NCBI RefSeq assembly: GCF_013315695.1
Contig: NZ_CP054355.1
DNA: 64,000 bases
Source of the DNA: Escherichia coli
Lineage (GTDB): Bacteria > Pseudomonadota > Gammaproteobacteria > Enterobacterales > Enterobacteriaceae
Reading direction: 5' to 3' (one strand)
Position numbers and translations under genes: made by a program. The notes under the pieces are model-generated. The model was not told where the DNA came from. It ran no database searches and saw only the letters and a list, made by a program, of their open reading frames with translations. Below are positions 38,652-59,660 of the stretch, piece after piece; position 1 is the first letter of the stretch; every line of letters starts with the position of its first letter.

Positions 38652-39207
38652 GACTTCCCCGGCATGTCAACGCCGGTGTTTACGGTTTCTGTCTGCACTA
38701 TAGTAAAAAAATAAAGGGGAGAGACTGCGGTACTATAAACGATCATGATGAATCGTCATCGATTCGGACCCTGATGAAAGACGCTCGTGAGGCTCTAGTT
38801 CGTTAGTCGGGTACACTTGCCCTGTACAATAAGCAGATATACCTCACGGGGTCTAACCCTTTATCATCAACGAGTTGCAGATCAGATGGTCATACAGCTT
38901 TGTACTTTAGCTGGCTGAGTACAACCTGAAATCATCACCGTAATGCAATGATGCCCAGCACAGTCTTGCATTTTTGGCAGCGATGGCAACAACAGCGCGC
39001 CAGTATCCTCTGCGTTCGACCAGTGAGCAGACCCAACGACTGAATAAATCAGTCCTTTTCTCCGCCCCGATCAGTACCGAGCGGGCACCCTGAACCAGAA
39101 GTGTTCTCAGATACGAATCGCCAGCTTTCGTTATCCTGCCAAGCTTCGACTTTCCGCCGCTGCTGTACTGCGATGGTGTCAGTCCCAGCCAGGCTGCCAG
39201 CTGGGGC
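38652..39207 (-). mobile_element. IS110/IS1111-family element fragment (3' part, IS5075/IS4321-like), truncated by IS26
   Basis: C-terminal transposase segment ...ANFATVPQLAAWLGLTPSQYSSGGKSKLGRITKAGDSYLRTLLVQGARSV...; adjacent to a Tn3-family IR, the usual target of this IS group. Confidence 0.45.
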
Positions 39208-39571
39208 ACTGTTGCAAAGTTAGCGATGAGGCAGCCTTTTGTCTTATTCAAAGGCCTTACATTTCAAAAACTCTGCTTACCAGGCGCATTTCGCCCAGGG
39301 GATCACCATAATAAAATGCTGAGGCCTGGCCTTTGCGTAGTGCACGCATCACCTCAATACCTTTGATGGTGGCGTAAGCCGTCTTCATGGATTTAAATCC
39401 CAGCGTGGCGCCGATTATCCGTTTCAGTTTGCCATGATCGCATTCAATCACGTTGTTCCGGTACTTAATCTGTCGGTGTTCAACGTCAGACGGGCACCGG
39501 CCTTCGCGTTTGAGCAGAGCAAGCGCGCGACCATAGGCGGGCGCTTTATCCGTGTTGATGAATCGCGGGAT
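39208..39571 (-). mobile_element. IS26 fragment (right end with 3' part of transposase)
   Basis: IR ggcactgttgcaaa at 39208; reading frame gives ...QIPRFINTDKAPAYGRALALLKREGRCPSDVEHRQIKYRNNVIECDHGKLKR...RLVSRVFEM, identical in pattern to IS26 Tnp C-terminus. Confidence 0.8.
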
Positions 39572-39606
39572 CTGGGCTCCGTTTGGGAAACGGAAAATAT
39601 TGTACG

Positions 39607-42594
39607 TTAAGGCTGTTTTTTGTACTGACTGACATCAACTGCTCGCAAAGGACGATACTTCCCTTCAGCCAGCTTCTTATTGTTTTTCCAGATATAGTCC
39701 CCTGTCAGATTAATGTGCTCCCAGCCCAGCGGAGACAAATGTGACAACAATTGCTCATTAATATGTAGCCCTTTCTTTTTCAGCAGGTTAATGGCGTTTT
39801 CTATATATACGGTATTCCACAAAGTGATTGCGGCAGTGAGCAGCGTAAGCCCACTGGCGCGGTAACTCTGGTTTTCAATACCACGATCCCTTATTTCTCC
39901 CAGACGATGCATGAAGACAGCTCTGGCAAGGGCATTCCGGGCTTCCCCTTTGTTCAGACCTGCCTGAACCCTACGACGAAGCGCCGGATCGCGGAACCAG
40001 TCCAGCATGAACAGTGTTCGCTCAATACGACCAATTTCTCTTAACGCCTTAGCAAGGCCATTCTGTTTCGGATAACTGGTCAATTTTTTCAGCATCAGAG
40101 AAGCGGTCACTGTTCCCTGTTTTATTGAGGTCGCCAGTCTCAGAATTTCATTCCAGTGTATTTTTATCTCTTTGATATTCAGGGGGGTTGTGGAGATAAT
40201 TGACTGTAGAGCAGGATAGTTATCAGCTTTACCTTGAATAAACAAACGTTTGTCATGCAGATCCCGGATCCTTGGGGCAAAAGCGAATCCCAGCAGATGC
40301 ATTAGTGCAAAAACATGCTCCGTGAAACCTGCTGTATCGGTGTAATGTTCCGTTATATCAAGGTCACTTTCGTGATACAGAAGACCATCAAGTACGTGGG
40401 TGGAATCACGAACACGACTGATTACTTTGGTATAAAACGGACTATATTGATCTGAGATATGCGTATAAAACTGCACCCCAGGTTCCTGACCGTACTTCAA
40501 ATTAACCTGACCGGCATAGCGCCCATGACTGCCAACCCTAAAATTCTGGCCGTCAGAGGATGAGGTGGAACCGTCTCCCCATAATGCCGCCAGCGGTCGT
40601 GACTTCTGGGCATTAACCAGTTCTGCCAGTGCAGCAGAGTACGTTTCATCACGGATGTACCATGCTTGTATGTTTTCCAGCGAAGCTCGTGTGGTTCCCG
40701 GACAGGACTCTGCCATTTTTTCCAACCCTAGATTGATGCCGTCCGCCAGGATAGTGGTTAGTAGTAAACGATTATCCTGAGGACGGATTAGCGGATTCTT
40801 AAGATGAGTAAAATGTCGCGAGAAGGCAGTCCATCGCTCGACTTCATCAAGTATCTCTGTAATTTTGGGGTGCGGTAGCATGTTGTAAATCAGGTCGGCC
40901 AGGGGAGAGACTGTTGAAGGAACGCTGTTATCCAGTGGGGTGATCTTTACACCTTTATCTGAAATATCCACATCAGGAAGCTCCCCTGCGACAGCCATTG
41001 CGTTAACTTCCTCCAGACGGGAGGCCAGTAGAGTCAGTCTGGCATTAAGATAAGCCCCGCATTCTGTGCCAACAGGTAAATTTAATAGGTTATTATTTAA
41101 TAACTTTTCGAAATCATCGTTAGGCATAAGATAATCATCAAAGTTTTTGTAGCGCCGGGAGCCCCTGACCCAGATATCACCCGCCCGCAGCGCCCCCTTT
41201 AGCTCATTCATTGCGCAAATTTCATAGTATTGTCGGTCAATGCCTGAGGGGGTGACCACCATCTTTCTCCAGCTCTCAGGAATGAAATCCAGTGGTGCCG
41301 ATGCAGGAACCTTTCGTAGCTGTTTACGGTACATATCACGAATAGTTTCAAGGGCATCATTAAGCGGCAACGCTGCCGAAGTGGCTCTCAGTTGCAGGGC
41401 CGATAGAAAACGAAAAGAATATTTGCGCAATGTACTGAATTTTTCGGTAATAAGATGAAGCGGCTCAAAATTATCCTTACGTGCAAGAAGCTTTGTTTCC
41501 TCCAGACTGGCGACAAAATCGTCCCACGGTAACACTCGTTCAATAGCAGACAGAGGATCTTCGCCTGCATTGCGTGCATCCAGGATAGCCTGGCCAACAG
41601 AAACATACTGACGTAACTTTTGCTGTATCAACTTGCCCGTTTTCTGAAGACGCTCAGCCTGCTGATGTTTTGCCCGACTGAACATGCTGCCTAGAATACG
41701 TTCATGCAGTTCTATAATTTCATCAATGATTGTGGCTCTGGCCTCAGTCAGTACACAGACCATCGTTGCGTATCGACGAGCAGGGGAAAAATCAGCCAGA
41801 TCGCGACTGCTCATTTTGCGGCCCTCACGCGCGAGTTTCAGCAATCGGTTCTGGTGAACGGTTCTCTCCACTCCTTCCGGCAGCGCCAGAGCTTCAATAG
41901 CGTTAAGGCGGTCAATGTGTTGCAGGACATTCTTTCCATTGATTTTCCCTGGAGGTTGAAGCAGCCACGTCAAACGGGATATTTGTTTTTCATTTGTCAC
42001 CAACAGGGCATCAAGCGCAGATTTATGCGTGATATCAAGGTGCGCATTCAGCGTTGTATACACCGTTTTATCACCCAGTGTCATTGCTTCTGCACAGGTA
42101 CGTTCCAGAACATCAATGCCTGGAATAATAATTCGCTGTTGATGCAGGTACTTTAGTAACTCCTCTGCGATAAGTATGCCTCTGTCCGTTCTGGTAGACA
42201 GAGGGAGCAGATGCCGGATACATTCTTTCTGAAGTGCACCGTTAAAGGCTTTCAGTTCAAGATATCGATAAAGTTCCCTCATATGCTCACGTCTGGTGGT
42301 ATCACGACCGGAAACGTATTCCTGCCAAAGTTCTGCTGATAACTTAAGTCGAGCGCCAATGGTTTTTAGCAATTTTGCGGGTGGGGATGATTTTTTATCC
42401 GGGGCAAACCCAATACTTTTCAGATAACAGAGAAGAACGGCAAAACCAAACCGGCTGGCAGGTTTACGGTGAGCATTGATAATTGCCAGATCCTGCTCAC
42501 TGAAATACGTCATTCGAGTCAGTGTTAACTCATCGTCTGGCAATGCCAGTAATGATTCTCTTTCCGATAGAGAAAGAATCTGCCTCCTTGCCAT
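39607..42594 (-). CDS. tnpA: Tn3-family transposase TnpA
   Basis: 995 aa; C-terminal DDE region typical of Tn3 family; ends inside IR. Confidence 0.9.
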   Translation of the reverse strand: MARRQILSLSERESLLALPDDELTLTRMTYFSEQDLAIINAHRKPASRFGFAVLLCYLKSIGFAPDKKSSPPAKLLKTIGARLKLSAELWQEYVSGRDTTRREHMRELYRYLELKAFNGALQKECIRHLLPLSTRTDRGILIAEELLKYLHQQRIIIPGIDVLERTCAEAMTLGDKTVYTTLNAHLDITHKSALDALLVTNEKQISRLTWLLQPPGKINGKNVLQHIDRLNAIEALALPEGVERTVHQNRLLKLAREGRKMSSRDLADFSPARRYATMVCVLTEARATIIDEIIELHERILGSMFSRAKHQQAERLQKTGKLIQQKLRQYVSVGQAILDARNAGEDPLSAIERVLPWDDFVASLEETKLLARKDNFEPLHLITEKFSTLRKYSFRFLSALQLRATSAALPLNDALETIRDMYRKQLRKVPASAPLDFIPESWRKMVVTPSGIDRQYYEICAMNELKGALRAGDIWVRGSRRYKNFDDYLMPNDDFEKLLNNNLLNLPVGTECGAYLNARLTLLASRLEEVNAMAVAGELPDVDISDKGVKITPLDNSVPSTVSPLADLIYNMLPHPKITEILDEVERWTAFSRHFTHLKNPLIRPQDNRLLLTTILADGINLGLEKMAESCPGTTRASLENIQAWYIRDETYSAALAELVNAQKSRPLAALWGDGSTSSSDGQNFRVGSHGRYAGQVNLKYGQEPGVQFYTHISDQYSPFYTKVISRVRDSTHVLDGLLYHESDLDITEHYTDTAGFTEHVFALMHLLGFAFAPRIRDLHDKRLFIQGKADNYPALQSIISTTPLNIKEIKIHWNEILRLATSIKQGTVTASLMLKKLTSYPKQNGLAKALREIGRIERTLFMLDWFRDPALRRRVQAGLNKGEARNALARAVFMHRLGEIRDRGIENQSYRASGLTLLTAAITLWNTVYIENAINLLKKKGLHINEQLLSHLSPLGWEHINLTGDYIWKNNKKLAEGKYRPLRAVDVSQYKKQP

Positions 42595-42760
42595 ATAGTT
42601 ATCCTTGTTAATTATTTAGTACGTTATTTTTGATGAAAAGGTTATTGCATAAGGGTACACCCTGATGCGAGATATAAAATGTGACCTCATACAAATAATG
42701 ACATAACCTATATGCGATAGAATATATGCAACAACCTAAATGCGACAATGCGGTGAAAAA
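42595..42760. promoter_or_regulatory. Probable res site and divergent promoters between tnpA and tnpR
   Basis: Position only, by analogy with Tn3-family organisation. Confidence 0.35.
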
Positions 42761-43402
42761 ATGTTCATCAGAGCTTATTTAAGGGCGTCAACAGAAGATC
42801 AGTTTGCAGATCGAGCAAAAGAGATGCTGGAACAGTTCGTCCAAGAACGGGGGCATAAAATTGCCAGTTATTATCGGGAGAACATAAGCGGTACAAAACT
42901 TGACCGTCCGGAACTGAAACGCTTACTGATGGACAGTCACCGTAATGATATTTTGCTGGTCGAGCAGATAGACCGCCTGACCCGACTGAGTAACAGCGAC
43001 TGGATAACGCTGAAAAAGCAGATAGAACAACACGAACTGCGGATTGTCAGTCTGGATGTTCCAACATCATGGCAAGCCCTGTCAGATAAAGATCCTTCAC
43101 AATCAGATCCGATTACCCGCGCAGTGATAACTGCAATAAATAATATGCTTATAGACCTGATGGCCGCGATGTCGCATAAGGACTGGCTGAGTCGTCGCCA
43201 ACGCCAAAAACAGGGAATTGAACGAGCTCATACGTTGGGTAAATACCGGGGAAAACAGGCCGATCAGGAACGTCATCAGAAAGTGTTGTACTACAGACAA
43301 GTAAAAAAACTCAGCATTAGAGAAACAGCAGATGCAACGGGCTACAGCACTTCGCAGGTTTGTCGCATTCAGGCTCTCTATAAAGAGGTTAAACCTGATT
43401 AA
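42761..43402 (+). CDS. tnpR: Serine recombinase / resolvase TnpR
   Basis: ORF 42740..43402, likely start MFIRAYLRAS; serine recombinase N-terminal catalytic pattern and C-terminal HTH. Confidence 0.85.
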   Translation: MFIRAYLRASTEDQFADRAKEMLEQFVQERGHKIASYYRENISGTKLDRPELKRLLMDSHRNDILLVEQIDRLTRLSNSDWITLKKQIEQHELRIVSLDVPTSWQALSDKDPSQSDPITRAVITAINNMLIDLMAAMSHKDWLSRRQRQKQGIERAHTLGKYRGKQADQERHQKVLYYRQVKKLSIRETADATGYSTSQVCRIQALYKEVKPD

Positions 43403-43450
43403 AAAACAGCCTTAACGTACAATATTTTCCGTTTCCCAAACGGAGCCCTG

Positions 43451-43845
43451 CTAGCCTTTTCGTAATCATGCCATTGGAGATCATCTGGATTGATGTTAGG
43501 CATGACGTCTTGGCTGTAAAGCAAAAAATCAAGTGAGTCATCCATGATCTTCTCAAAACGCTTACTGCGGTTGTTTCTGTCACTAATAGAGCCCGCCTGA
43601 TACCACCTTTCCGACAACTGCCGATATCGAAGGAAGTGCTCATCCTCTTTCAGTTGATGAAACTGGTTCCTGATTTGTGCATCAAGCCGAATTGCCAGAC
43701 CAGTAAAATCAGGTAACACAACCTTATGAGGGGCATTTTTGGGAGAAATCAGAGAAATGAATTCAGAAACCTGCATATCCTTGCTCTGAGGCCCGTAACG
43801 TTTATCAGAGCGGCGGGTGCCAATAAAAAAGCTTTCAATCGTCAT
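43451..43845 (-). CDS. Hypothetical protein (about 130 native codons, 3' end fused into Tn3-family IR)
   Basis: ORF 43399..43845 continues into the IR, so the native C-terminus is probably lost. Confidence 0.3.
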
Positions 43846-43883
43846 GATTTACCATATTAATCAGTATGTTACTCATTTATGTG

Positions 43884-44057
43884 TGTATGAGGTTACATGT
43901 AGTACAGATGTAAAACCGGCGTAAGCCGGTGCGTTCGTCCGAAATAACCAATCCGTTCGTCCAGTTCAATGGCTGCTATCAGGTTCTGCTCCGCAATGTA
44001 TTCACGAATGCGCTTCCTGTCCTGGCTGGCCAGCATGGTCCAGAATATCTCCATCAT
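43884..44057 (-). pseudogene. ParE/RelE-family toxin gene, truncated after about 45 codons
   Basis: Manual translation MMEIFWTMLASQDRKRIREYIAEQNLIAAIELDERIGYFG... then unrelated sequence and stop; ATG overlaps antitoxin stop (ATGA). Confidence 0.45.
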
Positions 44058-44323
44058 TTACCGGCAACCTTCCTGCTCATTTCATCTCGCCATGCTGCAG
44101 CAGAGGATTCGACCATGTCATGGGGAAGTACATCGCCGTGCTCGAGTTGCTGACGTCCTGCCTCAACCTGGTCACGGAACCAGGTATTATGCTGCCGTTC
44201 AACGGTCTGACGCATAAAATCCCGGATTAACTGAGAGCCATTACGGTCCATGCTTTTTGCAGCGGCCATAAAAGCATCCTTCAGTTCAGCGTCGATTCTT
44301 AAACTCATATTAACCTGTGCCAT
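44054..44323 (-). CDS. Ribbon-helix-helix antitoxin (ParD/RelB-like)
   Basis: 89 aa MAQVNMSLRIDAELKDAFMAAAKSMDRNGSQLIRDFMRQTVER...; upstream of and overlapping the toxin fragment. Confidence 0.55.
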   Translation of the reverse strand: MAQVNMSLRIDAELKDAFMAAAKSMDRNGSQLIRDFMRQTVERQHNTWFRDQVEAGRQQLEHGDVLPHDMVESSAAAWRDEMSRKVAGK

Positions 44324-45236
44324 TTATCACCTCGTCATTACTACGTATATACACAGTATATAACGATTCAGACATCGTCACCAGGATATGCCGCGTCAGC
44401 GGCATGGAAGGCGGCACGCTGTGGTTACATGTGATACCGGAGTAAAACCGCCGAAGCCCGGCGTCAGCCGATACTGATTGATAGATTTCACCTTACCCAT
44501 CCCCAGCCCTGCCAGACCATACCCGCTTTCAGCCATGAGAGAGCTTCTGTGCGCGGTCGGAGTGGTCCCGACGAGGGTTTACCCGAAGTCGGGGCGTATC
44601 TCCGCGTTAGCGGGCCGTGAGGGCCGCTTACGAGCGTGTACTGAGAACTTCCAGCGAGAAGACTGACAGCGATGATGATGTAGTTACAACATTCATAATT
44701 AAAAGCGACTCTGTTCCGGCCCTTCGGGCCGGGGCGGGGCCGCTTTTCAGTTATGAGGGAGGGGCTTTGTTGTTTCGGTTCTGCGCTGGACCGGGGTTTT
44801 CCTGGTGGTTGTATTTGAGTGTTGTAACTAAAATGGCTCCGGTCGGGGCCCGCCGCTTGCGGTGGGAGGTGCATATCTGTCTGTCCACAGGACAGGCAAT
44901 GAACAGGTTTTCTTTTTAAATGAATGTAATTAAGTAGTTTAAAGGAGATATAAACAGGTGTTTAAAAGATACATTGCACCCTGTAACGCTGGCGGCTGGC
45001 GCTTTATGAGGTGAACGGTTGTAACCTTATCGGGAAGTCCCTTGCAGTTTAATGTGGATAAGCACAATTACCCGTCTGTGAGGCGTATTTTGTATTAAAA
45101 ACAGGGGGAACCGGATGCACCTGAAGGTGGATGGTGAGGTTATTTTTTGTATGTGGTGCTGATTTTTTGTGCACTGGCGGGCTTCAGGCGTGCGGAAGCC
45201 TCCGGCGCGTGCCGGATTATTCTGAGGAGGTCACTT

Positions 45237-46094
45237 TCAGGGGGAAGCTGTAGCCAGCCGGCTGTAATTGCGGTTACGTGACAGAATCATGCGCTCCTTC
45301 ACACGACGCTCCACTTCGCGTTTTACCGTCTCACCATTAGCAGTAAAGCGCCCTTCCGAGATTTCACGCGTCAGCTGCCGTTTCACCAGGGTGACGATAT
45401 CCTGACGTTCCCTGTTCGCATCACGACGCGCACGGGCACGTTTTATTCCACGGGACTTAAGCTCTGTCTGGTAACTGCGGAAACGCTCACGCACAAAACG
45501 CCAGGCTTTCGCTATTAGTTCATCCATACCCAGGGTATCCAGCCCCTGTTTTTTGCGCTGTCTGTTTTCCCATTCAACACGACTGCGGCGCGCAGCTGCC
45601 ACTGCATCCTCAGACACATCAAGGGCAGCAAACAGAGCCGGTGTGAACGTGATATCGGTCGGAATGTAGCACCCGATAAGCGGGTCATATTCCGTCTGGT
45701 AGGTAATCAACCCCAGCTCTGACAGGAACGTCAGGGCACGGGTGGCACGAGTGATGGAGAGTTTTCCTGCACCGGACTCTGTCGCCAGTCCGCACTCAAT
45801 GGCCAGCGTGGTGATGGAGCACTGGACGCGGTTGGCCAGCGGGTCATAGTGGAAACACAGCCCCTGCAGGAGCGCATCAATAGCCCGTCGACGCAGCACC
45901 GGTGGCATGCGTCGACGCAGACCACGCGAACGGGCATGCGCCACATGAATGGCGAAATCAAAACGGGAGGTGAAGCCCACCGCCTTTTCCATCAGTTTTT
46001 CGCAGAACTTCAGCGTTCCGGCACCTTTACGGGGTGTAAACACCGGATTCGGGTTCTTTACCTGGCGGTAATACGTTTGGTGAAGATCAGTCAC
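45237..46094 (-). CDS. repA1: IncFII (RepFIIA) replication initiator RepA1
   Basis: ORF 45237..46106; ...[64 protein letters not shown]... matches R100/R1 RepA1. Confidence 0.9.
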
Positions 46095-46231
46095 ACCATC
46101 CTGCACTTATGTTGCACAGAAGGAGTGAGCACAGAAAGAAGTCTTGAACTTTTCCGGGCATATAACTATACTCCCCGCATAGAGCAACAGCTTCTATGCA
46201 GTTTCTTGTTAGCCCCGGTAATCTTTCCTAC

Positions 46232-46330
46232 TCGCCAAAGTTGAAGAAGATTATCGGGGTTTTCGCTTTTCTGGCTCCTGTAAATCCACATCAGAACCAG
46301 TTCCCTGCCACCTTACGGCGTGGCCAGCCA
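46232..46330 (+). ncRNA. copA: CopA antisense RNA region of the IncFII replicon (approximate)
   Basis: Leader sequence gttgaagaagattatcggggttttcgcttttctggctcctgtaaatccacatcagaaccagttccctgccaccttacggcgtggccagccac recognised as the CopA/CopT target region; boundaries and strand inferred. Confidence 0.4.
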
Positions 46331-46405
46331 CAAAATTCCTTAAACGATCAGCAATCTATCACGCACACCAGAAACAGGCAAGAATGTGATGTCGCTACAT
46401 TTTAG

Positions 46406-46654
46406 TTAGCTAAAAGCACTCTTCTGCTTTATCAGTTCGGCAATCATCTCAGCCTGGGTAACGCCCTCAGCTTCACACATCACCTGCAATTGCGCTTTTA
46501 ACGCAGCAGGAATGAACACTCTGAGTTCTTTATGTGTAGCTCGTTTTCTTGCCAGGGATGCCTGCTGACGTTCTGCAAGCGTCAGAGGATTACCTTTTCT
46601 GTATGCTCGCTTTGTACCTGATGAGGAAGTCACTGCATTTTCTGTCTGCGACAT
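46406..46654 (-). CDS. repA2: IncFII copy-number repressor RepA2 (CopB)
   Basis: 82 aa basic protein directly upstream of the repA1 control region. Confidence 0.8.
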
Positions 46655-46810
46655 CTCGCCTCCTCAATACTCAAACAGGGATCGTTTCGCAGAGGATACT
46701 ACAGTTTTTTGAAATCAGCGACTTGAGAATTGTGACGAAGATCTGTGTTGGCGCACAAATCAACGGGGATTACTGTCGTTTAATGTGATTTAAACTGTGA
46801 AATAGTATGG

Positions 46811-46895
46811 TTTTCAGTTATGGAAACGCCGGGAGCGGGGAAAACTTGCTTTTTCCCGTTTCCGGGGTTGGACAACTGAGCAACGCGAAGGCGTC
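46811..46895. repeat. Conserved about 85-bp element, copy A (gttttca..ggaaacgccgggag...ccggggttggacaac.gagcaacgcga.ggcgtcagc) followed by hairpin
   Basis: About 75 percent identical by eye to 59537..59620; both copies lie just 3' of a minus-strand gene. Confidence 0.6.
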
Positions 46896-47484
46896 AGCTA
46901 CGATGTTCCGGGGACTGCTGATCAGCCCCTGTTGTATTCAGCCATTCTCCGGTCATCTGCAGCAGTTTTCTGGCATCGTGGCTTCTGAGCAACGGAATAC
47001 CAGCCTGCCTCAGAACCTCTTCCAGAAGAATATCCCGGCGTCTGCGTTCCGGTCGTAAATGGCTGGCATCATCCAGCTCTACTGCTGCAACAATACTGAA
47101 CGAACGCCGCTCAACGATAACCACATCAACATGCCACTGAGACACCATCCTGAATAACTGCCACCACTGGCGTGATCGTGGCCGGATATTCCCGTTCAGC
47201 TGGACGATATCCGCGACCCGTACCTGCGGACACAGATACCACCGCTTCATATCCACAATTCTGAACAGTCCTTTCATAAAACTGACTTCCCTTTCTGTCA
47301 GCAGCGTCTTCTGACGTTGCCAGTATTCACCGCCGGACAGTATTCGCTCTGCATCACCGGTCCGTATACCTGCCGCATGCAACTGCATCAGCAAAGGAGA
47401 ATGCTGATTTACACTTCTGAGGATAATCCGGATAAGTAACGCTGCAATAATCAGAACAATGAGAATAAAAATAATCAGCTTCAT
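46894..47484 (-). CDS. Conserved IncF backbone protein with N-terminal TM helix (possibly DUF2726 nuclease-like)
   Basis: 196 aa ORF; position between repA2 and finO; family from memory only. Confidence 0.45.
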   Translation of the reverse strand: MKLIIFILIVLIIAALLIRIILRSVNQHSPLLMQLHAAGIRTGDAERILSGGEYWQRQKTLLTEREVSFMKGLFRIVDMKRWYLCPQVRVADIVQLNGNIRPRSRQWWQLFRMVSQWHVDVVIVERRSFSIVAAVELDDASHLRPERRRRDILLEEVLRQAGIPLLRSHDARKLLQMTGEWLNTTGADQQSPEHRS

Positions 47485-47521
47485 TGTTTATCTGCTCCTG
47501 GTAATTAATTATTCTGAATTA

Positions 47522-47731
47522 TTACCTTACATATTTCCATATCTCTTTTGGTATCCTGTCATATAACTTTCCGGTGATTAATTCCGCTAACCGGTGGTCT
47601 GCTGCTGAATTAAATGATTCACGTTCACTGGTTGATAAACTGTCTCTGTTTTTATGAATAATTTTTTCCAGCGTATTGACTGATGAACATCGCCGTAACT
47701 GATACAGCCATTCCTGTTTTGTTTTTGCCAT
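47522..47731 (-). CDS. Hypothetical protein (69 aa), IncF backbone
   Basis: ORF track only. Confidence 0.35.
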   Translation of the reverse strand: MAKTKQEWLYQLRRCSSVNTLEKIIHKNRDSLSTSERESFNSAADHRLAELITGKLYDRIPKEIWKYVR

Positions 47732-47776
47732 TTTTATTCCCGCTGAGAACAGATGAATGATAAGATTGCCAGCGCT

Positions 47777-48238
47777 TTATTTACGGTGTCTCCATATCCA
47801 GGGGGGAACCGGATCAGCATCTGACCAGAGCCCACGTTTTTGTTGTCTGGCTTCGTTCTGAAAGACAGGCAGCACGGGATCTGTGTTGTACTGCTCATAT
47901 ACCCAGGCAGCCCCGGCCCGGACCATAAACTGATTAACATTCATTCCGTCTGGTGCATAAACCTGCCCGAGAATACGGCCATAACGATCTCGCTGAAAAT
48001 ATGTGACGGTAACCGTTTTTCCTGCAACCAGTGATTTCATCATGTCCGTTGACCACCGGCCATAATCCTGTTTCTTTTCCGGTGCATCAATATTTACCAG
48101 CCTGATCCGCACCGCCTTCCGTGAGTCCATGACCTCGATGGTATCACCGTCCAGTACACGAACAACCCGTCCATGAATATCTGCAGACAATACCGGCCAT
48201 GAAAAGATAAATAATACCAGTGGAATATATTTCATCAT
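47777..48238 (-). CDS. nuc: Secreted thermonuclease (micrococcal nuclease family)
   Basis: ORF 47777..48334, likely start MMKYIPLV with signal peptide; ...LDGDTIEV...RIRLVNIDAPEK...YGR nuclease motifs. Confidence 0.7.
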   Translation of the reverse strand: MMKYIPLVLFIFSWPVLSADIHGRVVRVLDGDTIEVMDSRKAVRIRLVNIDAPEKKQDYGRWSTDMMKSLVAGKTVTVTYFQRDRYGRILGQVYAPDGMNVNQFMVRAGAAWVYEQYNTDPVLPVFQNEARQQKRGLWSDADPVPPWIWRHRK

Positions 48239-48826
48239 GTTATTCTCCATATCAGATAAATGGCACCTGTATTTCAGGCATCCTGAACATTGCAGCACAC
48301 AATGAATAACACCTTGTTTTGTGAAATAAATCACAAAATATAAAATCTCGACTTAATACGGAAAAAACTCTGTGCTACTCAGAACTGTACGGTCATACTG
48401 CCCGACCGGATATTAAAAAAAGCAAATCTCATGCATTATTCAGCCTTCTGAATCCCTGGAGTAATGAAGGCTGCTTTTTTCGTTACACCCTTCCCCGGCT
48501 GCGCCGGTGGCAGTGTTCAGCCCTTTTTCGGGCAAACTGCTGCCAGTCTGTCCGGGGCGCAACACCGGCAGCCCGTCGCCATGCTTCTGCCGCTTCCATC
48601 CAGCGTCCACTGACCTCCAGAATAACGGCCCGGCTTCCGGCACGCTGCCAGCGCCAGACCTGACCGTTCCGTGAACTGTTTCTGAATCCATTCATCTTTA
48701 TCACTCCTCTTTAACCCGTCAGTATTATGGTGTTAAATAATCTACTGAATTGGCTTCCTTTCGGGTACGGAAGTTATTTCCTTTTAAGCCTTATTTCCCT
48801 GCCTCCTCTCTGATGGAGGCTTTTTT

Positions 48827-49387
48827 TTATTTCTCATCAAGCACGGCCTGAAGTTCTGCCTTTATCCGGTTCTGGCGGCGGATTTTATCCAGACGCGCTG
48901 CCGCATACGCTTCCTCCTCCTGAGAAATATGCTCCGTCACATACCCTTCCGTGTCATACCGGCAGGCACCGGCTTTCATGGCACACAGATAGCTTTCTGA
49001 ACGGGTGATGGCCTTCAGCGCCCTGCGCAGTTTTTTATGCGAGAGCGGGATATTCCGCTGCGCCACGTCTTCCAGTAACACGTCCCGGATACCGCAGGCC
49101 AGAAGTCGGGGTGTGTCACCGTCAAATAATCCCGGCCACCAGGGTTTCAGGGTGTTCACGGCCTCATCCAGCGAGGGCAGGTTCAGATAAATGGACAGCG
49201 CCTGTCTGGCCTGCGCTTTTTTTGCTGTCAGCTCTGCTTCCCGGGCAGCCTTCTCCGCCAGTTTCTGCTTTTTCACCTTCCATTTTGGTGGCGTGGTGAC
49301 ATTGATGATGGTTTTCCGGCTCCGGGTCGGTGTTTCCCCTTCCGTTTTCCGTTTCAGTGTCAGTACCGGTCGTTTCTGCTCTGTCAT
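48827..49387 (-). CDS. finO: Fertility inhibition protein FinO (RNA chaperone), apparently intact
   Basis: 186 aa [40 protein letters not shown]... matches FinO. Confidence 0.85.
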
Positions 49388-49489
49388 GATTGCCCTGACC
49401 TTTGTGAAAATATGTCCTCCAGGTCGTTGAAACTACTCACTATGATATTAAGCTGACCTCAACGACCTCTGACATATTAATACCGACAA

Positions 49490-50350
49490 TTAAAGATGTT
49501 TTTTAAACCATTGCGTCTGTACTGCCGCCACACGTTCAAAAAACGCGCCTTCATAAATATCATAATGGCATGCGTCAGCTTCCTCGTATAATTCCTTAGT
49601 ACCAGAAGCAACAGCATCATATAAGGCTTTTCCCTGTTCTGGTGGATTAACACTATCCTGGCCGGCAATAACAATCAAAACTGGGCACTGTACTTTGGCT
49701 GCGCTCTCTGCCGGTTTATATTGCAACGTCTCCATAACCGTAAGGAAAGGTATTTTTATATCCATTTCAGGATACTGACCTTTTACCTTCTCGAAGAATA
49801 CCTTTGATTCATTATCACTCAGTACCCGGGTAACCCCCACAAACATCTCTTTCCCGGTGTTTTTCTTCTTCTCTGCCATTTTATTCAGCGTGGACAGAAA
49901 AGACGCTCTCTCCGATTCATTCATCTCTCCGGTAACCAGAACATCACCGTCAGCAAAAGCCAGCTGGCTGACAATACATTTTACGCGTTGGTCCTGCGCA
50001 GCTGCACTGAAGACATGCCCCCCTCCCAGCGATGTTCCCCATAACCCAATACGCTGATTATCAATACATTCCTGCTTTTCTGCCCAATTGATAACTGAAA
50101 TAATATCTTCGGTCTGCATTGCAGGAACCAGACGCCCTCGTTCTCCATCACTCTCACCGAATCCTCGATAATCAAAAGTAATCGTTGCGAATCCTGCTTC
50201 TGTAAAGGCATTCGCAAAGCAAGGGAGCAGAACATTCCTGATACCGCAAAACCCATGGCATAAGATAATCAAAGGATGTTTTATATTTCCTTCAGGAACA
50301 CGAAATGTCAGGGCAATACCTTCAGAGAGTTTGTGATCCGTAATTTTCAT
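49490..50350 (-). CDS. Alpha/beta hydrolase (dienelactone hydrolase-like)
   Basis: 286 aa; GxSxGG nucleophile elbow (GLWGTSLGGG); located between traX and finO. Confidence 0.6.
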   Translation of the reverse strand: MKITDHKLSEGIALTFRVPEGNIKHPLIILCHGFCGIRNVLLPCFANAFTEAGFATITFDYRGFGESDGERGRLVPAMQTEDIISVINWAEKQECIDNQRIGLWGTSLGGGHVFSAAAQDQRVKCIVSQLAFADGDVLVTGEMNESERASFLSTLNKMAEKKKNTGKEMFVGVTRVLSDNESKVFFEKVKGQYPEMDIKIPFLTVMETLQYKPAESAAKVQCPVLIVIAGQDSVNPPEQGKALYDAVASGTKELYEEADACHYDIYEGAFFERVAAVQTQWFKKHL

Positions 50351-50408
50351 AAATATCCTGTGTTATGTTGTTTATTAATAATCAGAATCAGCGTCAGTAT
50401 CATACCAG

Positions 50409-51155
50409 TCACAACGCCAGAACGCCCAGCACAGCCAGATGACAGGCGTAGAATACCGGGAAAAAATCCCCGGGCCAGAAACGGGGTAATGATTTTCCTG
50501 CACACGACACCAGACCAACGGTCAGCACCGTCATTACAAGACCGGCCACCGCCGCTGCATCACTGGAGGCAAGGTTAAGTGCCGGAATAACGGCCAGCAG
50601 GCATGCAAGCAGCGCCAGACGTTCCGCTCTGTCTTCCGCCCGGTACAGTCGGTAACTGACCGCCAGCATCAGCAGCCCGGCAATGCCGTAACTGGTGCCG
50701 GACAAAGGCCCCCACAGGGCCATCAGAAGAATGGCCGCTGCTGTACGCCACCCACTGCGCGTTTCACACCACGTCAGCACCTGTGCCGCCACTGCAAAGG
50801 CAAACAGGATATTCCCCTCATACCAGGGAAAGCCGGCCAGATAATATGCGAACTGGGCAATAATTCCCCATCCCCACAGCCGGTTAATGGCCGGTTGCCG
50901 GATATGCGCATGACGGGACAGATTCAGCCCCCACACCAGGGCAAACAGCGGAAAGGCTCCTCGCCCGGCCAGAAACATCCATTCCTGCTTCAGCTGGAAT
51001 ATCAGATTGATGTGGTCCAGTACCATCAGCACCAGCGCCACCGTTTTGATGATATCCCGCTGTCCGGGTGACCAGACCAGAAACGACTGCAACCAGGTAT
51101 CGGTCCGTGCAGCCAGTGAATCGTTACGTGTCGTGTTCGTGTTATCCGTTGTCAT
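50409..51155 (-). CDS. traX: F-pilin acetylase TraX
   Basis: ORF 50409..51626, real start at MTTDNTNTT; polytopic membrane protein at the position of traX after traI. Confidence 0.8.
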   Translation of the reverse strand: MTTDNTNTTRNDSLAARTDTWLQSFLVWSPGQRDIIKTVALVLMVLDHINLIFQLKQEWMFLAGRGAFPLFALVWGLNLSRHAHIRQPAINRLWGWGIIAQFAYYLAGFPWYEGNILFAFAVAAQVLTWCETRSGWRTAAAILLMALWGPLSGTSYGIAGLLMLAVSYRLYRAEDRAERLALLACLLAVIPALNLASSDAAAVAGLVMTVLTVGLVSCAGKSLPRFWPGDFFPVFYACHLAVLGVLAL

Positions 51156-51174
51156 CAGTGTTTGTCTTCCTGTA

Positions 51175-54100
51175 TCAGTCTCCGCCCAGGGTTTTCTCTT
51201 TCTGCAGGTCACGAACCATATCCCGCTCCATCTGCTGCAGACGCTCCTGCAGCAGATTTTCCCGGGCAACCTCCCGGACCGCTTCCCGCTCCCGTTGTGA
51301 TTCACGCAGCACACTCTCCGGCAGTGCGGTTTCCCGTTCAGATATGGCAGACCGGTCACGCTCCTGTCCGGCAATATCCCTGACAGCCAGCTCTGTTTTG
51401 CCATCCGGCAGGTCAGGTTTGTTCTCTGCCATTTTCCTGACAATTTCATCTGCGCGGCGTTCCGTTTCACGGCGGATGGCCTCTTCAGCCTGCCGCTGTG
51501 CCAGTACCTCTGCCGTGACCGGTTCGCCATTTCCGGCCCCCGGCTGGACGCTGTTATCCGGGATATCCCCCCACACGCGGCCACCGGTGATGGCACCGGG
51601 ATTCCACGGACGACCTTCACCGGCAATTCTCACCACCACACCGCTGTCAGGATTATCACGGGCAATCCGGACGCCATCCTGCATATTATCAGCCAGCAGG
51701 CTCTCTCCGTTACGGCTGCCCTGCAGGGCCACGAACTGCGCATCCCCGCTGCCTTTCACCCGTCCTTCACCACTGAATCCCCGCAGCCCGTTTCCGTCAT
51801 CCGTGGTCAGTGGGTTCAGCCAGATACCAGCTGACTTGCCGTTACGGTCAAACGCCGGCAGTGCCACATACGGCTGCGGATATTTACGTCCCGGTGCAAT
51901 AAACCGTGCAGGGCTGTCTCCCCCGGCCAGCCCTGCCTGACGGAGAACGGCACGGCCTGCCGCCACGTCCCGCAGTTCCCGTGCCGTACTGAACAGCCGC
52001 TGCGCATTCATGACCTCCCGGTCCGGTTTCGGCTCCAGCACATCGTGGGCAGTTCCTTTCTGTACGGCATTGTTAATGGCATCCGTCCAGCCCTGACGGT
52101 TATCGGTGTACACCTGCACATGCTGCTTCATACGCGACAGGGCCACGTAGGCTGACTCAAAGCCGGCCATCAGTTTCCGGTTACCTTCCGTGCCTTCAAG
52201 CGCGATGGCAAAGGTTTCACTCGCCCCCTGCGCACCGTGGGCGGTGATGGCATAAGCCAGGTCAATATGTTGCTCTGCCCGCTCCTGGCCGGGGCGAATC
52301 ACCCGGGTCTGCTGTCCGTCTGACAGCGTGACACTGTCACCGGAAACCGCTGTCACCGTCCAGACGCTGTTGGCCACATAACCGCGCTCCCGGTCACTCT
52401 TCGTGAAGCGCATCCGGTCGCCGGTCCCCACCCGGATTTTGTCCGGGGTGTACAGTGTGACACCTTCAGCCACCGCCTCCCGGGGCGAAATCAGCCGCGT
52501 GTTACCTTCCGCATCCTCCAGGGTTATCAGCCCGTCATCCTTGCTGATACCGGCAATCCGGTGATACACACTATCCACCAGGGCAAGGGCATCCGGGTTA
52601 TTCTCCCAGGTGGAGAGACGACGCAGCTCCCCGTCACGTATATTCGCTGTGTTCAGGACAGGCACCATGACCTGCTCTTTCCCCAGCTCACCGGCCTTTT
52701 CCCGTGCATCATGAATCATGCTGTTCAGTACGCGCCGGTCCTCATTCAGGTGCGTGACAATCAGCGTCTGCTCCCGTGCTTCCGGTGTCCTGCCGGTATA
52801 GTCGCGGACAATGGCTTCATACAGTGTCATGGGGACATCCGGAAAAGTCTCACCTTTCAGCATCGCCTTCTGCTGCGCTTCTGCCAGTTTCGCTTCCTGG
52901 CTGTGACTGAACTCCGTCACGGAGTGCTCCGGTGCCCATGCGCCCTCCTGACGGGGAACCTGAGACGGTTTCACACTCTCAAGCCCGGACAGTGCCCTTT
53001 CCACATCCCGGTTAATCAGGCTGTATACCGCCTCCCGCAGTTCCGGCGTCTGACGCACAATCTCCTTCATGATGACCACATCGGCAGCACTGCGCGTCTG
53101 CTGGAGACGGAAAGGCTGACCGGGCGCGATGGCCTGCAGCTGGTCCGTGTCACCACTGGCCACGGCACGACCGCCACCGGCCGCAATCAGGGCGTATGCC
53201 CGTGCCATGTCGGTATTGCCCACCATTGAGCTCTCATCGAGCAGGAACAGCGTGTTGCTGAAATCCGGCGTTTCTCCGCTGCGCTGCTGCAGCTGCGTGT
53301 CATGCAGAAAGGACGCCAGCGTCTGTGCATCCACGCCGGCGCTGCGCATCTCACCGACCGCACGGTGCGTGGGCCCCAGCCCCACAACTCGGGGACGCTC
53401 ACTCGCCGGCAGCATGTTCACGGCTGACATCACCGCCCGGAACTGTGTGGTCTTACCCACACCGGCATAACCCTGTACCACCGTGAAACGGTCGGACGTT
53501 TCCAGTATCATACGGGTGGCGGCACGCTGTCCCGACGTTAACGTCTCCATGAGTTCGCCGGGTACTCTCTCCATCAGCGGCGTGACCGCCTCCTTACCTT
53601 CGAGAATATGGCGAAGAATACTTTTTTCTGCCTCATACGACGCACGGGAAACCAGCAGGCCTGTGCCATAGCCTTTTGCCACATCCACATACAGTAAGTC
53701 ACCGCGTTTTATCTGCGCATTGATTTCCCCTCCCAGTTCAGTAAAACCGGTTCCTTCTGCAGCAAACGACTTCGCCTCTGTCAGCAGGTCCACCATGCTG
53801 AAGGCCAGGTTTTTACTTTCCAGCACAGGAAGGGCCAGATGAATGGCCTGCTGTGCCGGCGTGTGCAGCCCGGTTTTCTGCAGACTGATAGCGGTTTCCA
53901 GCGATGTCTCACCGGCCCGCGCCTTTATCTGCTCAGAAACCACCGTAAAGGAGGGATGGCGGGCAAGTTTTTCCGCAGTACGGGTTTCATCCAGTGAGGA
54001 ATACAGCCGGACATCACGACCGCTGCGGGCCAGACCGTTCAGGGTGGCGTTGTCCATTGCCATCTGTGTGACGGAGGCAAACACCGTCGCACTGTCACTG

Positions 54101-56445
54101 ACGGAATGCCCGGGCGTTTCCACCCAGCCGTTCTCCAGCTTCAGTGCCGTGAACGGTGAATCAGCCACAGGCAGGGTGGCCGGTTCAGCCCGCCCCGGCA
54201 CAACAACCGTCATCGCATCTTCACTGACGGATGCCACCTGCAGGCGGTCACCGCCGGAGACGCGGAGTCCGGGAATTTTCCCTGTCACCCTCAGTCGCTC
54301 GCCGTCTGCCACCGGCATTTTTTCCGGCCGGAACAGCGACCAGCTGCTGTCCAGGGAGGAAATACGCACCACCTGCGTTTCGCCCTGCGCATCCCGCAGG
54401 GTCAGGCTGTGACTCTGCGCCGTCACCCGGTCGATAACATAGCGGTCATGACTGCGTGTCTCCGGGTTCCACTGCTCCATCACCATCCCCGGTCGGTACA
54501 TATCCCGCAGATAACGGCTCCGGCTGTCCAGCCAGACCGGTGACAGGGCGGTCATGGTCACCTCCGGGTGTCCGAGCACGCCCTGTGTTTTCAGCTCACT
54601 GCGAATGGCCTGTGTCAGTATGGCCTGTTCCCGTACCCCGCTGACCTGTGCCACGCTCTCTTCTCCGGCTTTCACGCTGGCCGCAAAATCTCCGGCCAGC
54701 CGGTCATAGCGGACATTCCGGTCCGGTTCACTGATGATGGTTGCCGGTCGCTGTTCTCCGCCCTGCCAGCGATACGTGTTCACCCCGGTATCCTTCATGG
54801 CCATCAGCGCACTGCCTGTACCGGTTCGCTGCCCGCTGTCGGTTATCAGGACCTGTACGTTATGACGTGCGGCACCGTCCAGCAGGGTTAACGTCTCTTT
54901 CAGGGAGAGTTTTTCGCCCTGGTCGACGATAACAGTACTGCCCGGCGTGAAGACCATGCCCTCCTGCAGCTGACGACGTCCGGTTATCAGCTCACCGGAC
55001 AGCCGTTCATCCTGCTTCAGGTTCATCTGCGAGCGACGGTCAGCAGCGATAATCTGCACCTCCCGCCCCTGCTCCCGGGCCATCATGACCAGTTCAGCCA
55101 CCCGCTCACGCTGCCCGGCTGCACCGCCCTGCCCGGACACAATGGCCAGCGACGGACGGTCCTGTGCCAGAACACTGACCGCATCGCTGTAACCAGCCGT
55201 CCGGGGGACACTTTTCTCCGGATGTACGGTCACCCGGTTCTGTTTCATGATGTCACGACTGAGTGCCCGGACGGACAGCTCATCGAGCACATGAATTCCT
55301 GATGTGAACAGCCCCTTCTCACGGTCGAGGGGGATAAGCTGCTCACGGCTGATGGCCTCATCGATACCGGCGCGTGCCCGTTCAATCACACCATTTTCCG
55401 GCGGCAGTATGCCGACCGTCCTGGCCAGCACGTCCGTATACGTGAACTGCACTTTTCGTTCACTTAATCCGGCAATCGCCTGTGTCACCGCCTGCTGCAC
55501 ATCCGGCCCGTCCTGTGAAGCAGGCCCGGGCGCCTGCGTGCGGATCTCCGCACGCTGATCCGCCGCGTCACGATATGCCCGGATGTCGAACCCGGTTTCC
55601 TTCAGCGTCTGCATCCATTCAGCCATTCTGATTTCCGGATCGACGTGCTGTTTGGATTTACGCGTATCCAGTGCCGCCACATCCCGGGATTTCAGCGAGG
55701 CGTCTTCCCCGACGGCCTCCCGGATAGCCTGTGAGCGTCCGGAAAAGGCCTCCACCGGTACGCCCGGCATCTCCCACATACCGTGCTTACCCACCACTTC
55801 GGTTTCATAGCCCAGCGCCTCAACCTGCTCTTTCAGTTTTTCCCGGTAGAGCCTGCCAAAGGCAATCTGATTAGCGTACACATTCTCAATGAACCCCGTT
55901 TTCCCCACTTTGTCACTGCTCAGTGTCTTCCACTCACCGTTATGCTGCGTGACATTAGCCACCACCGCATGCGTGTGTAACTGTGGTTCCTGATCGCGAC
56001 TGGTGTCGTGGTTAAACAGTGCCATCACCAGATTACCGGTCAGCACCGTTTCTGACTGTCCGTCCGTCATCACCCGTGTGGAGGCCAGCGCCTCCACCTG
56101 ACGAACAGCAAAGTCCACGGCCTGGTTATGTGCATCAATCAGGCGCTTATCGCCACCTAACATGGCCATCATGGAGACACTTTTGGGGGCGGAGAAGGTC
56201 AGGTCGTAGCCGGGACGATGCTTATTACTGCCATCCTGCATGCGGCTTAGATCCGCTCCGTCCGGCAGCCTTCCCTCCAGAAGACGGGTAAAAACATCCT
56301 TATCGACACTGCCCTGCAGTCCCAGCTGTTCAGCCCCCCTGCCGGCCCAGCGTTCTCCCATGCTGCCCAGTACATAGTAATTATCCTTGTCGGTATAATA
56401 GTTACCGGCACTTCCGGCCGATCTGACCTGCGCGATACTCATCAT
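51175..56445 (-). CDS. traI: Relaxase/helicase TraI
   Basis: 1756 aa; N-terminal relaxase, helicase Walker motifs; F TraI length and sequence pattern. Confidence 0.95.
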   Translation of the reverse strand: MMSIAQVRSAGSAGNYYTDKDNYYVLGSMGERWAGRGAEQLGLQGSVDKDVFTRLLEGRLPDGADLSRMQDGSNKHRPGYDLTFSAPKSVSMMAMLGGDKRLIDAHNQAVDFAVRQVEALASTRVMTDGQSETVLTGNLVMALFNHDTSRDQEPQLHTHAVVANVTQHNGEWKTLSSDKVGKTGFIENVYANQIAFGRLYREKLKEQVEALGYETEVVGKHGMWEMPGVPVEAFSGRSQAIREAVGEDASLKSRDVAALDTRKSKQHVDPEIRMAEWMQTLKETGFDIRAYRDAADQRAEIRTQAPGPASQDGPDVQQAVTQAIAGLSERKVQFTYTDVLARTVGILPPENGVIERARAGIDEAISREQLIPLDREKGLFTSGIHVLDELSVRALSRDIMKQNRVTVHPEKSVPRTAGYSDAVSVLAQDRPSLAIVSGQGGAAGQRERVAELVMMAREQGREVQIIAADRRSQMNLKQDERLSGELITGRRQLQEGMVFTPGSTVIVDQGEKLSLKETLTLLDGAARHNVQVLITDSGQRTGTGSALMAMKDTGVNTYRWQGGEQRPATIISEPDRNVRYDRLAGDFAASVKAGEESVAQVSGVREQAILTQAIRSELKTQGVLGHPEVTMTALSPVWLDSRSRYLRDMYRPGMVMEQWNPETRSHDRYVIDRVTAQSHSLTLRDAQGETQVVRISSLDSSWSLFRPEKMPVADGERLRVTGKIPGLRVSGGDRLQVASVSEDAMTVVVPGRAEPATLPVADSPFTALKLENGWVETPGHSVSDSATVFASVTQMAMDNATLNGLARSGRDVRLYSSLDETRTAEKLARHPSFTVVSEQIKARAGETSLETAISLQKTGLHTPAQQAIHLALPVLESKNLAFSMVDLLTEAKSFAAEGTGFTELGGEINAQIKRGDLLYVDVAKGYGTGLLVSRASYEAEKSILRHILEGKEAVTPLMERVPGELMETLTSGQRAATRMILETSDRFTVVQGYAGVGKTTQFRAVMSAVNMLPASERPRVVGLGPTHRAVGEMRSAGVDAQTLASFLHDTQLQQRSGETPDFSNTLFLLDESSMVGNTDMARAYALIAAGGGRAVASGDTDQLQAIAPGQPFRLQQTRSAADVVIMKEIVRQTPELREAVYSLINRDVERALSGLESVKPSQVPRQEGAWAPEHSVTEFSHSQEAKLAEAQQKAMLKGETFPDVPMTLYEAIVRDYTGRTPEAREQTLIVTHLNEDRRVLNSMIHDAREKAGELGKEQVMVPVLNTANIRDGELRRLSTWENNPDALALVDSVYHRIAGISKDDGLITLEDAEGNTRLISPREAVAEGVTLYTPDKIRVGTGDRMRFTKSDRERGYVANSVWTVTAVSGDSVTLSDGQQTRVIRPGQERAEQHIDLAYAITAHGAQGASETFAIALEGTEGNRKLMAGFESAYVALSRMKQHVQVYTDNRQGWTDAINNAVQKGTAHDVLEPKPDREVMNAQRLFSTARELRDVAAGRAVLRQAGLAGGDSPARFIAPGRKYPQPYVALPAFDRNGKSAGIWLNPLTTDDGNGLRGFSGEGRVKGSGDAQFVALQGSRNGESLLADNMQDGVRIARDNPDSGVVVRIAGEGRPWNPGAITGGRVWGDIPDNSVQPGAGNGEPVTAEVLAQRQAEEAIRRETERRADEIVRKMAENKPDLPDGKTELAVRDIAGQERDRSAISERETALPESVLRESQREREAVREVARENLLQERLQQMERDMVRDLQKEKTLGGD

Positions 56446-58670
56446 CAGAAATCATCTCCCGGCTCAACATCCTCCCCACGCTCCCGGTGCACATTAATGT
56501 TCACCTCTTCACGACGCTGCATCTGCTGCTGGATGTCCGGATGATTTTCCTGTTGCCATGCCTCATAAGCGGCCATATCCACCACTTCACCGGATTCACT
56601 GATCCCGGGTGGCAGTTGCTGTTCCATCTCTTCTTCCGGTTTCATTTTCAGCTCCTGCTCGATCCCCCCTGCCGGAACACTCACACCTGCATCTGACTTC
56701 TTATCATTGATGACAGAAGACACTGGCTGTTGTGGCTGTTGTGGCTGTTGTGGCTGTTGTGGCTGTTGTGGCTGTTGTGGCTGTTGTGGCTGTTGTGGCT
56801 GTTGTGGCTGTTGTGGCTGTTCAGCCTGAGTCACATCTTCTCCGGAGGCAACCTCCGGTTCAAAGAGGCTGGCCATCTGACGACCTTCTGCTTCCCTTGC
56901 GGCAAGTACGGCACTCAGACGGTTCTCCATTTCCGGGTTGATGTCACGCGGAATAAACTCCGGAGCGACCTTCGGTCGTGCCTGATATTTCAGAGAGAGT
57001 TTGACTGCCGGATACGGTCCGGGCAGAGTGACATAGCAGGTCAGATCCGGCAGAGACTGAATGTCGGAATAACTGACCAGCGTCTGACGCTCCATATCCT
57101 TACCGGTCGATACCCCGTCACGTACCGGGTCAGCACCGTAGGAATACTGCTCGCTGGCTTTCAGGTGCTCTTTCTCACCAATCTCACCGGCAGCGAACTC
57201 TGCAATCTTATGGCTCGGGGAACGGAAAAAAGCACGGGTGTTCATGACGTCAAACAGCGTGGCCGCCGCTTTCTCACCGTAGATATCTTCCAGCTGGGCA
57301 TAGGACTGGATACCAAACACATAACAGCCACCGAACTTACGGGCTTCCGGCAGGATCTCCACCAGGTCCGGCAGTTTGTGTAACGTGGGTAACTCGTCAC
57401 AGAAAAACCACACACGACGGTTACGGTTTTCTCCCATTGCCAGCAGACCACGAATGGCAATGGACAGCCACATGGAGATCACCGGCTTCAGGGAGGCATG
57501 GGTGTCGGCGTTCGACGAAATAAACAGCCAGCCGTTTTTCTGATCTTCCCGGACACCACGCATCCAGTCACGGATGGTAAAAGACTCACCGTTATGCTCA
57601 ATCCCCTGCAGGTAACGGATGGCTTTCACGTAGTTGGTCAGCACAGCACGGATGGAAATCGCCGTTTTCTCAATTTTCTCTTCCACCAGGTTGGCTGCCG
57701 GTGAATTACGCAGGAAGGTACGCAGTTTTTCAATTTTGATGGAAAGCAGTGTGTCCACCAGTTTGCTGTAGCTGCGGTTGGGGTCATTACGCATCAGGTA
57801 CGCCGCTTCCGCAAAAATGGTACGTCCTGAACCCTGCCAGAACGGGTCCTCTTTTGTACCCATAGGGATCAGAGTATTTGCGGTATTATCAAAATCCGGC
57901 TGTGTCAGGCACTCCTTCCACAAATCCCATGCGGCACAGCGGGCATCCAGCGGATTCAGGATTTTATCGATGGAGGGATCATAGTAACTTTTAACAAATT
58001 CCCCTGAACGGTCATAAATCACCACCATATCACCGCGCTGACGGGCATAGTTGGCCAGACGACGGATAACCTCCGACTTACCGGCCCCGACCGTGCCGTG
58101 CAGACAGAAGTTCTGGATTTCGGAATCCCGGATAATCGGCAGGTCGCCAATCCGGATATCGGAGTCCTTGCCGTCTTTTTTCAGCATCCGGGCCACTTCT
58201 TTCGGGTTATCCGTCAGCTGACGCCCGCCGGTCACCTCATTTTCACTCTGCTGTTTCCCCTGATGCCCCAGAATCCAGGAGACAACAAAGAAGGTGATCA
58301 GGCAAATAACCAGGGCCACGACAGACGCCAGAACGAATGCAGACCATAGCTGCTCTCCGCACCAGATCATATATTTATCATGCAGTACCTGGGCAGCGTT
58401 CATCCGGAAGGTTTTGCCGTAATACTGGATCTCATAGACCGGCTGGGATTTTATTAAATCCCGCATGCCTTCCAGTGACGTACACCACCAGTAAATACAG
58501 CCGTTGATAAACGTCTGCCAGCTTATTTTTACCCATAAGACCAGACCAATGAGGATCCAGAAAAAAATAAACAGGCAGTAAAGCATGATATTGGCGATCT
58601 GGCTGAACATGCGGATACGCATGGACGCAATCTGACCGCCCTGGGTCATATCCTTTGCGTTAAAACTCAT
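56445..58670 (-). CDS. traD: Type IV coupling protein TraD
   Basis: 741 aa; N-terminal TM helices, Walker A, C-terminal QQP repeats. Confidence 0.95.
56725..56818. repeat. Tandem 9-bp repeat (ggctgttgt, about 10 copies) encoding QQP repeats within traD
   Basis: Read directly; in-frame within traD. Confidence 0.85.
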
Positions 58671-58720
58671 GATGAAACTCCGGGAAAATCTGGAACAGGG
58701 CAGAAAAGGATGATGTGGGG

Positions 58721-59620: not shown

Positions 59621-59660
59621 GTCAGCAAGGAGGCCGGTCAGATCAGCCTCCTGACGAGGT

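Follow-up and report, generated by a model that had tools for sequence, protein, structure and literature searches.

The window, that is, the whole 64,000-nt stretch of DNA analysed, harbours an IncFII replicon with the following parts:

46406–46654, minus strand: copB (repA2), 82 aa; 136 bits to NF010256 against a cut-off of 87, and 115 bits to Pfam PF10723
46179–46268, plus strand: CopA antisense RNA; 89.8 bits to Rfam RF00042 against a gathering threshold of 60, full length (1–92)
46144–46172, plus strand: CopA promoter; TTGAAC, a 17 nt spacer and TATACT
46087–46161, minus strand: tap (repA6), leader peptide of 24 aa, 21 of which are identical to R100 Tap
45237–46094, minus strand: repA1, IncFII initiator of 285 aa with a GTG start; 579 bits to TIGR03474 against a cut-off of 446.9, and 619 bits to NF010313
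44890–45080 (approximate), minus strand: oriR, with a DnaA box and an AT-rich stretch; boundaries inferred from what is known of the R1/R100 oriR

Assignment to IncFII is based on the family of the RepA1 initiator, a CopA RNA with its own promoter, the overlap of tap with repA1, the gene for CopB, and oriR. Both the parts and their order (copB, P-repA, CopT/CopA, tap, repA1, oriR) are the same as in the RepFIIA replicon of R100 (NR1) and R1, and RepA1 is identical to its R100 equivalent at 275 of 285 residues (96.5 %). The tap frame overlaps the GTG codon of repA1 (46094) by 8 nt, an arrangement of the translational-coupling type. On the opposite strand, the CopA promoter is the sole sigma-70-like consensus match within 44300–46900 and ends 7 nt ahead of the Rfam start of CopA, with the RNA itself folding into two stem–loops (z = −3.9). 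CopA is the copy-number and incompatibility determinant, its complement in the repA leader being termed CopT, whilst CopB is a transcriptional repressor of the repA promoter. Past the stop codon of repA1, the sequence reads as a DnaA box (TTATCCACA) at 45053–45061, 176 nt beyond the gene, followed by an AT-rich stretch; oriR is consequently located just outside the interval 45237–46654 in which the earlier note had placed its findings. The record NZ_CP069530.1 contains a 100 % identical stretch, and its RefSeq annotation provides the same IncFII gene coordinates, with tap entered as 'RepA leader peptide Tap'. The CopB protein (WP_000083839.1) is identical in NZ_CP069530.1 and in the microcin B17 plasmid p0.1229_2 (NZ_CP028322.1).

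A second replicon, RepFIB, occupies the start of the window:

1–978, plus strand: RepFIB repA, initiator of 325 aa with a GTG start; 43 bits to Pfam Rep3_N
981–1152: four iteron-like CTSACTRYAGTTTAT repeats, 3′ of RepFIB repA

This module is recognised as RepFIB by its Rep_3-type initiator and the iterons downstream of it. As no NCBIfam model matched the initiator, it was judged by direct comparison with plasmid F, to which it is identical at 323 of 325 residues (99.4 %) and 951 of 978 nt. The claim in the earlier note that RepFIB, at the window start, and RepFIIA reside on one molecule is borne out by this value together with the 275 of 285 residues shared by RepA1 and its R100 counterpart. 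Similarity to F extends past the gene, with window 1–2224 showing 93.5 % identity to F 37620–35356, and the neighbouring tyrosine recombinase is the same in both. Counted from the repA start, the first three repeats (offsets 981, 1013 and 1053) have counterparts in F at the same offsets, and further copies are found at 1180 and 1228 in F and at 1138 in the window. Three upstream repeats are also present, 155–213 nt ahead of repA, in F and in NZ_OZ040540.1, a 114-kb pUTI89-like plasmid that represents herein the IncFIB/FIIA plasmids pUTI89, pRS218 and pEC14_114. The corresponding position falls beyond the 5′ edge of the window, that edge being the GTG of RepFIB repA. Because position 1 coincides exactly with this codon, as is the case for several PLSDB records that likewise begin at the RepFIB repA start codon, the source record was probably rotated to start there, and the window probably covers the initial 64 kb of a circular plasmid that is longer than this. 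The record of NZ_OZ040540.1 also starts at RepFIB repA. A tblastn search with F RepE, RepA1 and RepFIB RepA detected no third replicon or rep paralogue in the window; RepE (FIA) is thus absent from it, whilst F possesses RepFIA (repE). Similarly, an Rfam scan of the window returned no RNAI or other replication-control RNA besides CopA.

Beyond the IncFII replicon, and again outside 45237–46654, lies finO, separated from traX by a further gene:

48827–49387, minus strand: finO, 186 aa, uninterrupted; 361 bits to NF010317 over 1–186 of 186, with Pfam FinO_N and ProQ/FinO domains
49490–50350, minus strand: 286-aa alpha/beta hydrolase gene, between traX and finO; 123 bits to Pfam Abhydrolase_1

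FinO is identical to that of R100 at 183 of 186 residues, and over residues 33–184 it departs little from the crystallised FinO 1DVO (E = 1e-95). Plasmid F has IS3 inserted in finO, and homology between the window and F accordingly breaks at window 48992–48995, continuing into F 1258 and F 99159, which is the position of IS3 in F finO; the window DNA runs on continuously over this point. The earlier note had regarded finO as intact, unlike that of F, and this stands, given a 186-aa product matched by NF010317 from end to end and an unbroken sequence at the IS3 site. Moreover, repA1, tap, copB, RepFIB repA and finO showed neither a frameshift nor a stop in the window sequence, the initiator repA1 and finO being the two genes for which the earlier note had named frameshifts as the test of its reading. 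The 286-aa hydrolase gene upstream of finO is presumably the 'orf286' of R6-5, a gene that van Biesen and Frost (1992) reportedly found to increase the amount of finO mRNA and to make repression stronger. It is shared by the window, R100 and the pUTI89-like plasmid, whilst F has no such gene between traX and finO; window 49389–50397 finds no match in either F or NZ_CP069530.1.

A full-length FinO with FinO_N and ProQ/FinO domains makes FinOP-repressed transfer a standard and reasonable prediction for this plasmid. In a comparison of 256 F-like plasmids, all classical group A members were finO+ with the exception of F, and F exceeds R1, R100 and pSLT in transfer by two to three orders of magnitude (PMC5102898). 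The gene sits at the distal end of the tra operon, and, if finP and traJ of the plasmid are intact, FinO would stabilise FinP and promote its pairing with traJ, so that transfer would be repressed as in R100 and unlike F. An Rfam scan for FinP RNA and the traJ 5′ UTR found neither in the window, as the window ends too early: the same models, used as a control, detect FinP and the traJ leader in R100 and in the pUTI89-like plasmid at approximately 34 kb from finO. By analogy, finP and traJ would be expected approximately 19 kb past the window end, beyond position 64000.

The visible part of the tra operon comprises its distal genes, with the proximal two thirds (traM-to-traH) lying beyond the window. 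Open frames of R100-like length are present for traX, traI (1756 aa), traD (741 aa), traT and traG (941 aa), and an open frame of 169 aa at 60406–60915 corresponds to traS. Compared with plasmid F, the tra genes are 90–97 % identical. At the DNA level, the traS region (60393–61003) is unmatched in F, R100 and the pUTI89-like plasmid, whereas the flanking traT and traG do match, traG being 90.9 % identical to that of the pUTI89-like plasmid; traS is, as judged by its sequence, a different entry-exclusion allele. The Rfam antisense RNAs AS-pc02, AS-traI and AS-traG are present at full length at 48402–48586, 53520–53596 and 62933–63018, respectively. These families were first described on the IncFII plasmid pHK01, and R100 also has all three, with AS-traI and AS-traG being found in the scanned part of the pUTI89-like plasmid.

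An intact finO could nevertheless be accompanied by transfer that is not FinOP-repressed, should finP or traJ be altered, or should tra be incomplete and the plasmid non-conjugative. This is unlikely, although finP, traJ and traM-to-traH are all located past the window end, and 50 of 200 group A F-like plasmids are without some essential transfer component (PMC5102898). The FII/tra segment also differs in lineage from the cargo, as seen from the identity of traG and the unmatched traS. Set against this, each of the visible genes traX, traI, traD, traT, traS and traG is full-length, and related plasmids with this backbone carry both FinP and the traJ 5′ UTR. Low, FinOP-repressed transfer remains the prediction.

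With regard to replication, all of the parts listed are present, intact and homologous to those of known replicons, and both modules would be expected to fire. The Rep_3-type initiator of RepFIB would bind iterons on both sides of its own gene. For the IncFII module, the copy-control scheme of R1 and R100 is established knowledge, and were it to operate here in the same way, RepA1 would be made only upon translation of the tap leader. CopA, by pairing with CopT in the leader, would block tap translation and so set the copy number, with CopB repressing the proximal repA promoter and RepA1 acting in cis on oriR just downstream. It is conceivable, but quite improbable, that only one of the replicons is active and that the other is a silent relic, in which case 'dual replicon' would describe gene content rather than function. 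Such decay has a precedent in F, which retains a copB–copA–tap remnant (RepFIC) that is truncated after tap (3850–3924) and followed by Tn3-family genes, with repA1 lost behind the transposon; additionally, the upstream origin repeats of RepFIB fall off the window edge. However, every visible part of both modules is intact and conserved, with RepA1 and RepFIB RepA retaining 96.5 and 99.4 % identity to R100 and F, respectively, CopA scoring above the Rfam threshold, a DnaA box being present, and neither a frameshift nor an IS insertion being found. The reading of two functional replicons is favoured.

The earlier note had further held that two replication systems broaden host range and stability. 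The idea recurs in the literature as a hypothesis on multireplicons at large (PMC7105883), and the window sequence neither supports nor refutes it. IncF plasmids, taking single- and multireplicon types together (1,118), have been classed as limited in host range, with 94 % found in Enterobacteriaceae (PMC7105883). According to published surveys, IncF plasmids more often have several replicons than one. Possession of several replicons and of an intact finO is the norm for F-like plasmids in nature, from which F deviates; the two replicons and the intact finO of the window are real and were correctly identified, and are already known.

The window is best understood, with a probability of about 0.9, as the opening 64 kb of an IncFIB/IncFII virulence plasmid of E. 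coli that is F-type (MOBF/MPF-F) and bears two replication modules and an intact finO. Its cargo of cjrABC–senB and iron-uptake genes is that of pUTI89/pRS218-like plasmids, with which it also shares its architecture, and window 1–38647 is 99.8–99.9 % identical to NZ_OZ040540.1. Gene order in the latter runs from RepFIB through cjrABC–senB, the iron-uptake cluster, the FII replicon, the hha to finO block and the hydrolase gene to tra. Because the same order is observed in this pUTI89-like plasmid, the dual-replicon layout is ancestral to the family. The outcome is mainly one of annotation, in that it places the molecule in the pUTI89/pRS218 family of IncFIB/IncFII F-type plasmids, with replicon alleles that are useful in plasmid typing and epidemiology. 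MOB-suite replicon labels, as given in PLSDB, were set aside and not used as evidence because they depart from classical nomenclature, R100 (NC_002134.1), the IncFII prototype, being labelled 'IncFIA'. The label of the pUTI89-like plasmid in the same scheme is 'IncFIA, IncFIB, IncFIC'.

Whilst the parts of the IncFII replicon are those of R100, the sequences that control it are in part not. R100 90571–74527 and window 44334–60393 are collinear, agree at 96.8 % identity and differ by no large indel. Upstream of copB, the two match completely (100 %) along approximately 150 nt. In a 50-nt sliding comparison with R100, the replicon is 88–100 % identical (as is the oriR stretch, taken in 50-nt steps) except for two divergent patches. 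The first of these covers the body of copB and approximately 50 nt after it (46358–46607, 46–64 % identical), whilst the second is within CopA/CopT (46159–46208, 32 of 50 nt). At the protein level, CopB is identical to R100 CopB at 49 of 84 residues (58 %). The approximately 50 nt past the copB stop, where the CopB-controlled promoter would be expected, agree with R100 at only 23 of 50 positions. Alignment of the CopA sequences reveals that stem–loop I and the spacer are unrelated to the version common to R100, F and the pUTI89-like plasmid, whereas stem–loop II is near-identical to that of R100 and different from the pUTI89-like allele. As CopB, CopA stem–loop I with the spacer, and the promoter region after copB all diverge from R100, the window carries an FII control allele different from that of R100. 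Such divergence in copA and copB is familiar allelic variation of IncFII replicon control regions. At an identity of at least 99 %, the allele (46100–46700) is found in approximately 10 records among the best >5000 PLSDB matches, and the occurrence of this uncommon copA/copB allele on a pUTI89-type plasmid is the only slightly unusual point of the molecule.

Past position 44381, identity to NZ_OZ040540.1 drops to 91–98 %, with copB and traS having no megablast match, and for this reason the FII/tra segment derives from another IncFII lineage than the cargo. The FII segment of the window is only 93.6 % identical to that of the pUTI89-like plasmid, with copB and CopA differing and traS and traG divergent. 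The closest match to window 43448–49388 is instead NZ_CP069530.1 (99.6 %), and no record in PLSDB or amongst complete E. coli genomes covers the whole window at ≥99 %. The best database matches thus form a mosaic, being pUTI89-like for 1–38.6 kb and NZ_CP069530.1 for 43.4–49.4 kb. Between cargo and oriR, the segment 38648–44380 is absent from pUTI89-like plasmids and contains IS fragments, a Tn3-family transposon and a yacA locus:

38907–39251: IS110-family transposase fragment
39205–39574: IS26 fragment
39607–42594, minus strand: Tn3-family transposase
42740–43402, plus strand: serine resolvase
43893–44057: truncated partner toxin ORF of yacA, 54 aa
44054–44323: yacA antitoxin

With its partner toxin ORF shortened to 54 aa, the yacA locus is probably a defunct toxin–antitoxin pair next to oriR.

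One tentative explanation, given somewhat less than even odds, is that the FII/tra backbone of a pUTI89-type plasmid was swapped by recombination for one with the uncommon copA/copB allele. In E. coli O18:H1 strain CFSAN067215, a pUTI89-like plasmid (NZ_CP028321.1) is accompanied by p0.1229_2, the CopB of which is that of the window and the copA region of which is 96.9 % identical. Because both plasmids are carried by this strain, the two FII control alleles would seem to be compatible, and such co-residence may provide a setting in which exchange of the FII segment could occur. If a swap did take place, it could alter incompatibility: F29-type pUTI89 plasmids would cease to exclude the plasmid, whereas R100-type plasmids, which share its CopA stem–loop II, might clash with it. 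The swapped FII/tra module would then be one more case of IncF plasmid mosaicism.

That the window is instead an assembly chimera, a pUTI89-like and a separate IncFII plasmid having been joined via IS/Tn3 repeats at 38.6–44.4 kb, is highly improbable: identity to the pUTI89-like plasmid does fall from 99.9 % (1–38647) to 91–98 % once 44381 is passed, IS fragments and a Tn3-family transposon occupy the DNA in between, and CFSAN067215 has both plasmid types as separate molecules, but in pUTI89-like plasmids a single molecule already combines RepFIB, the iron cluster, the FII replicon, finO and tra, arranged in this order, and homologous exchange of the FII/tra segment accounts for the pattern equally well. 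As pUTI89-like plasmids share the layout, the dual-replicon arrangement is therefore independent of the junction at 38.6–44.4 kb.

Within the cargo region, further differences from NZ_OZ040540.1 are apparent. The latter possesses a 2.26-kb group II intron (ltrA; 13715–15975) and a copy of ISEc10, and the window has neither, the respective positions being ~13711–13719 and the region of ~25.5–27.5 kb. Two inverted IS3-family copies, 98.7 % identical to each other, are located at 13711–14506 and 24751–25546, and each contains one ALIL frameshift pseudoknot (Rfam RF01497; 14054–14170 on the minus strand and 25087–25203 on the plus strand). The pair flanks the segment with colicin immunity, cjrABC and senB, in an arrangement that resembles a composite transposon.
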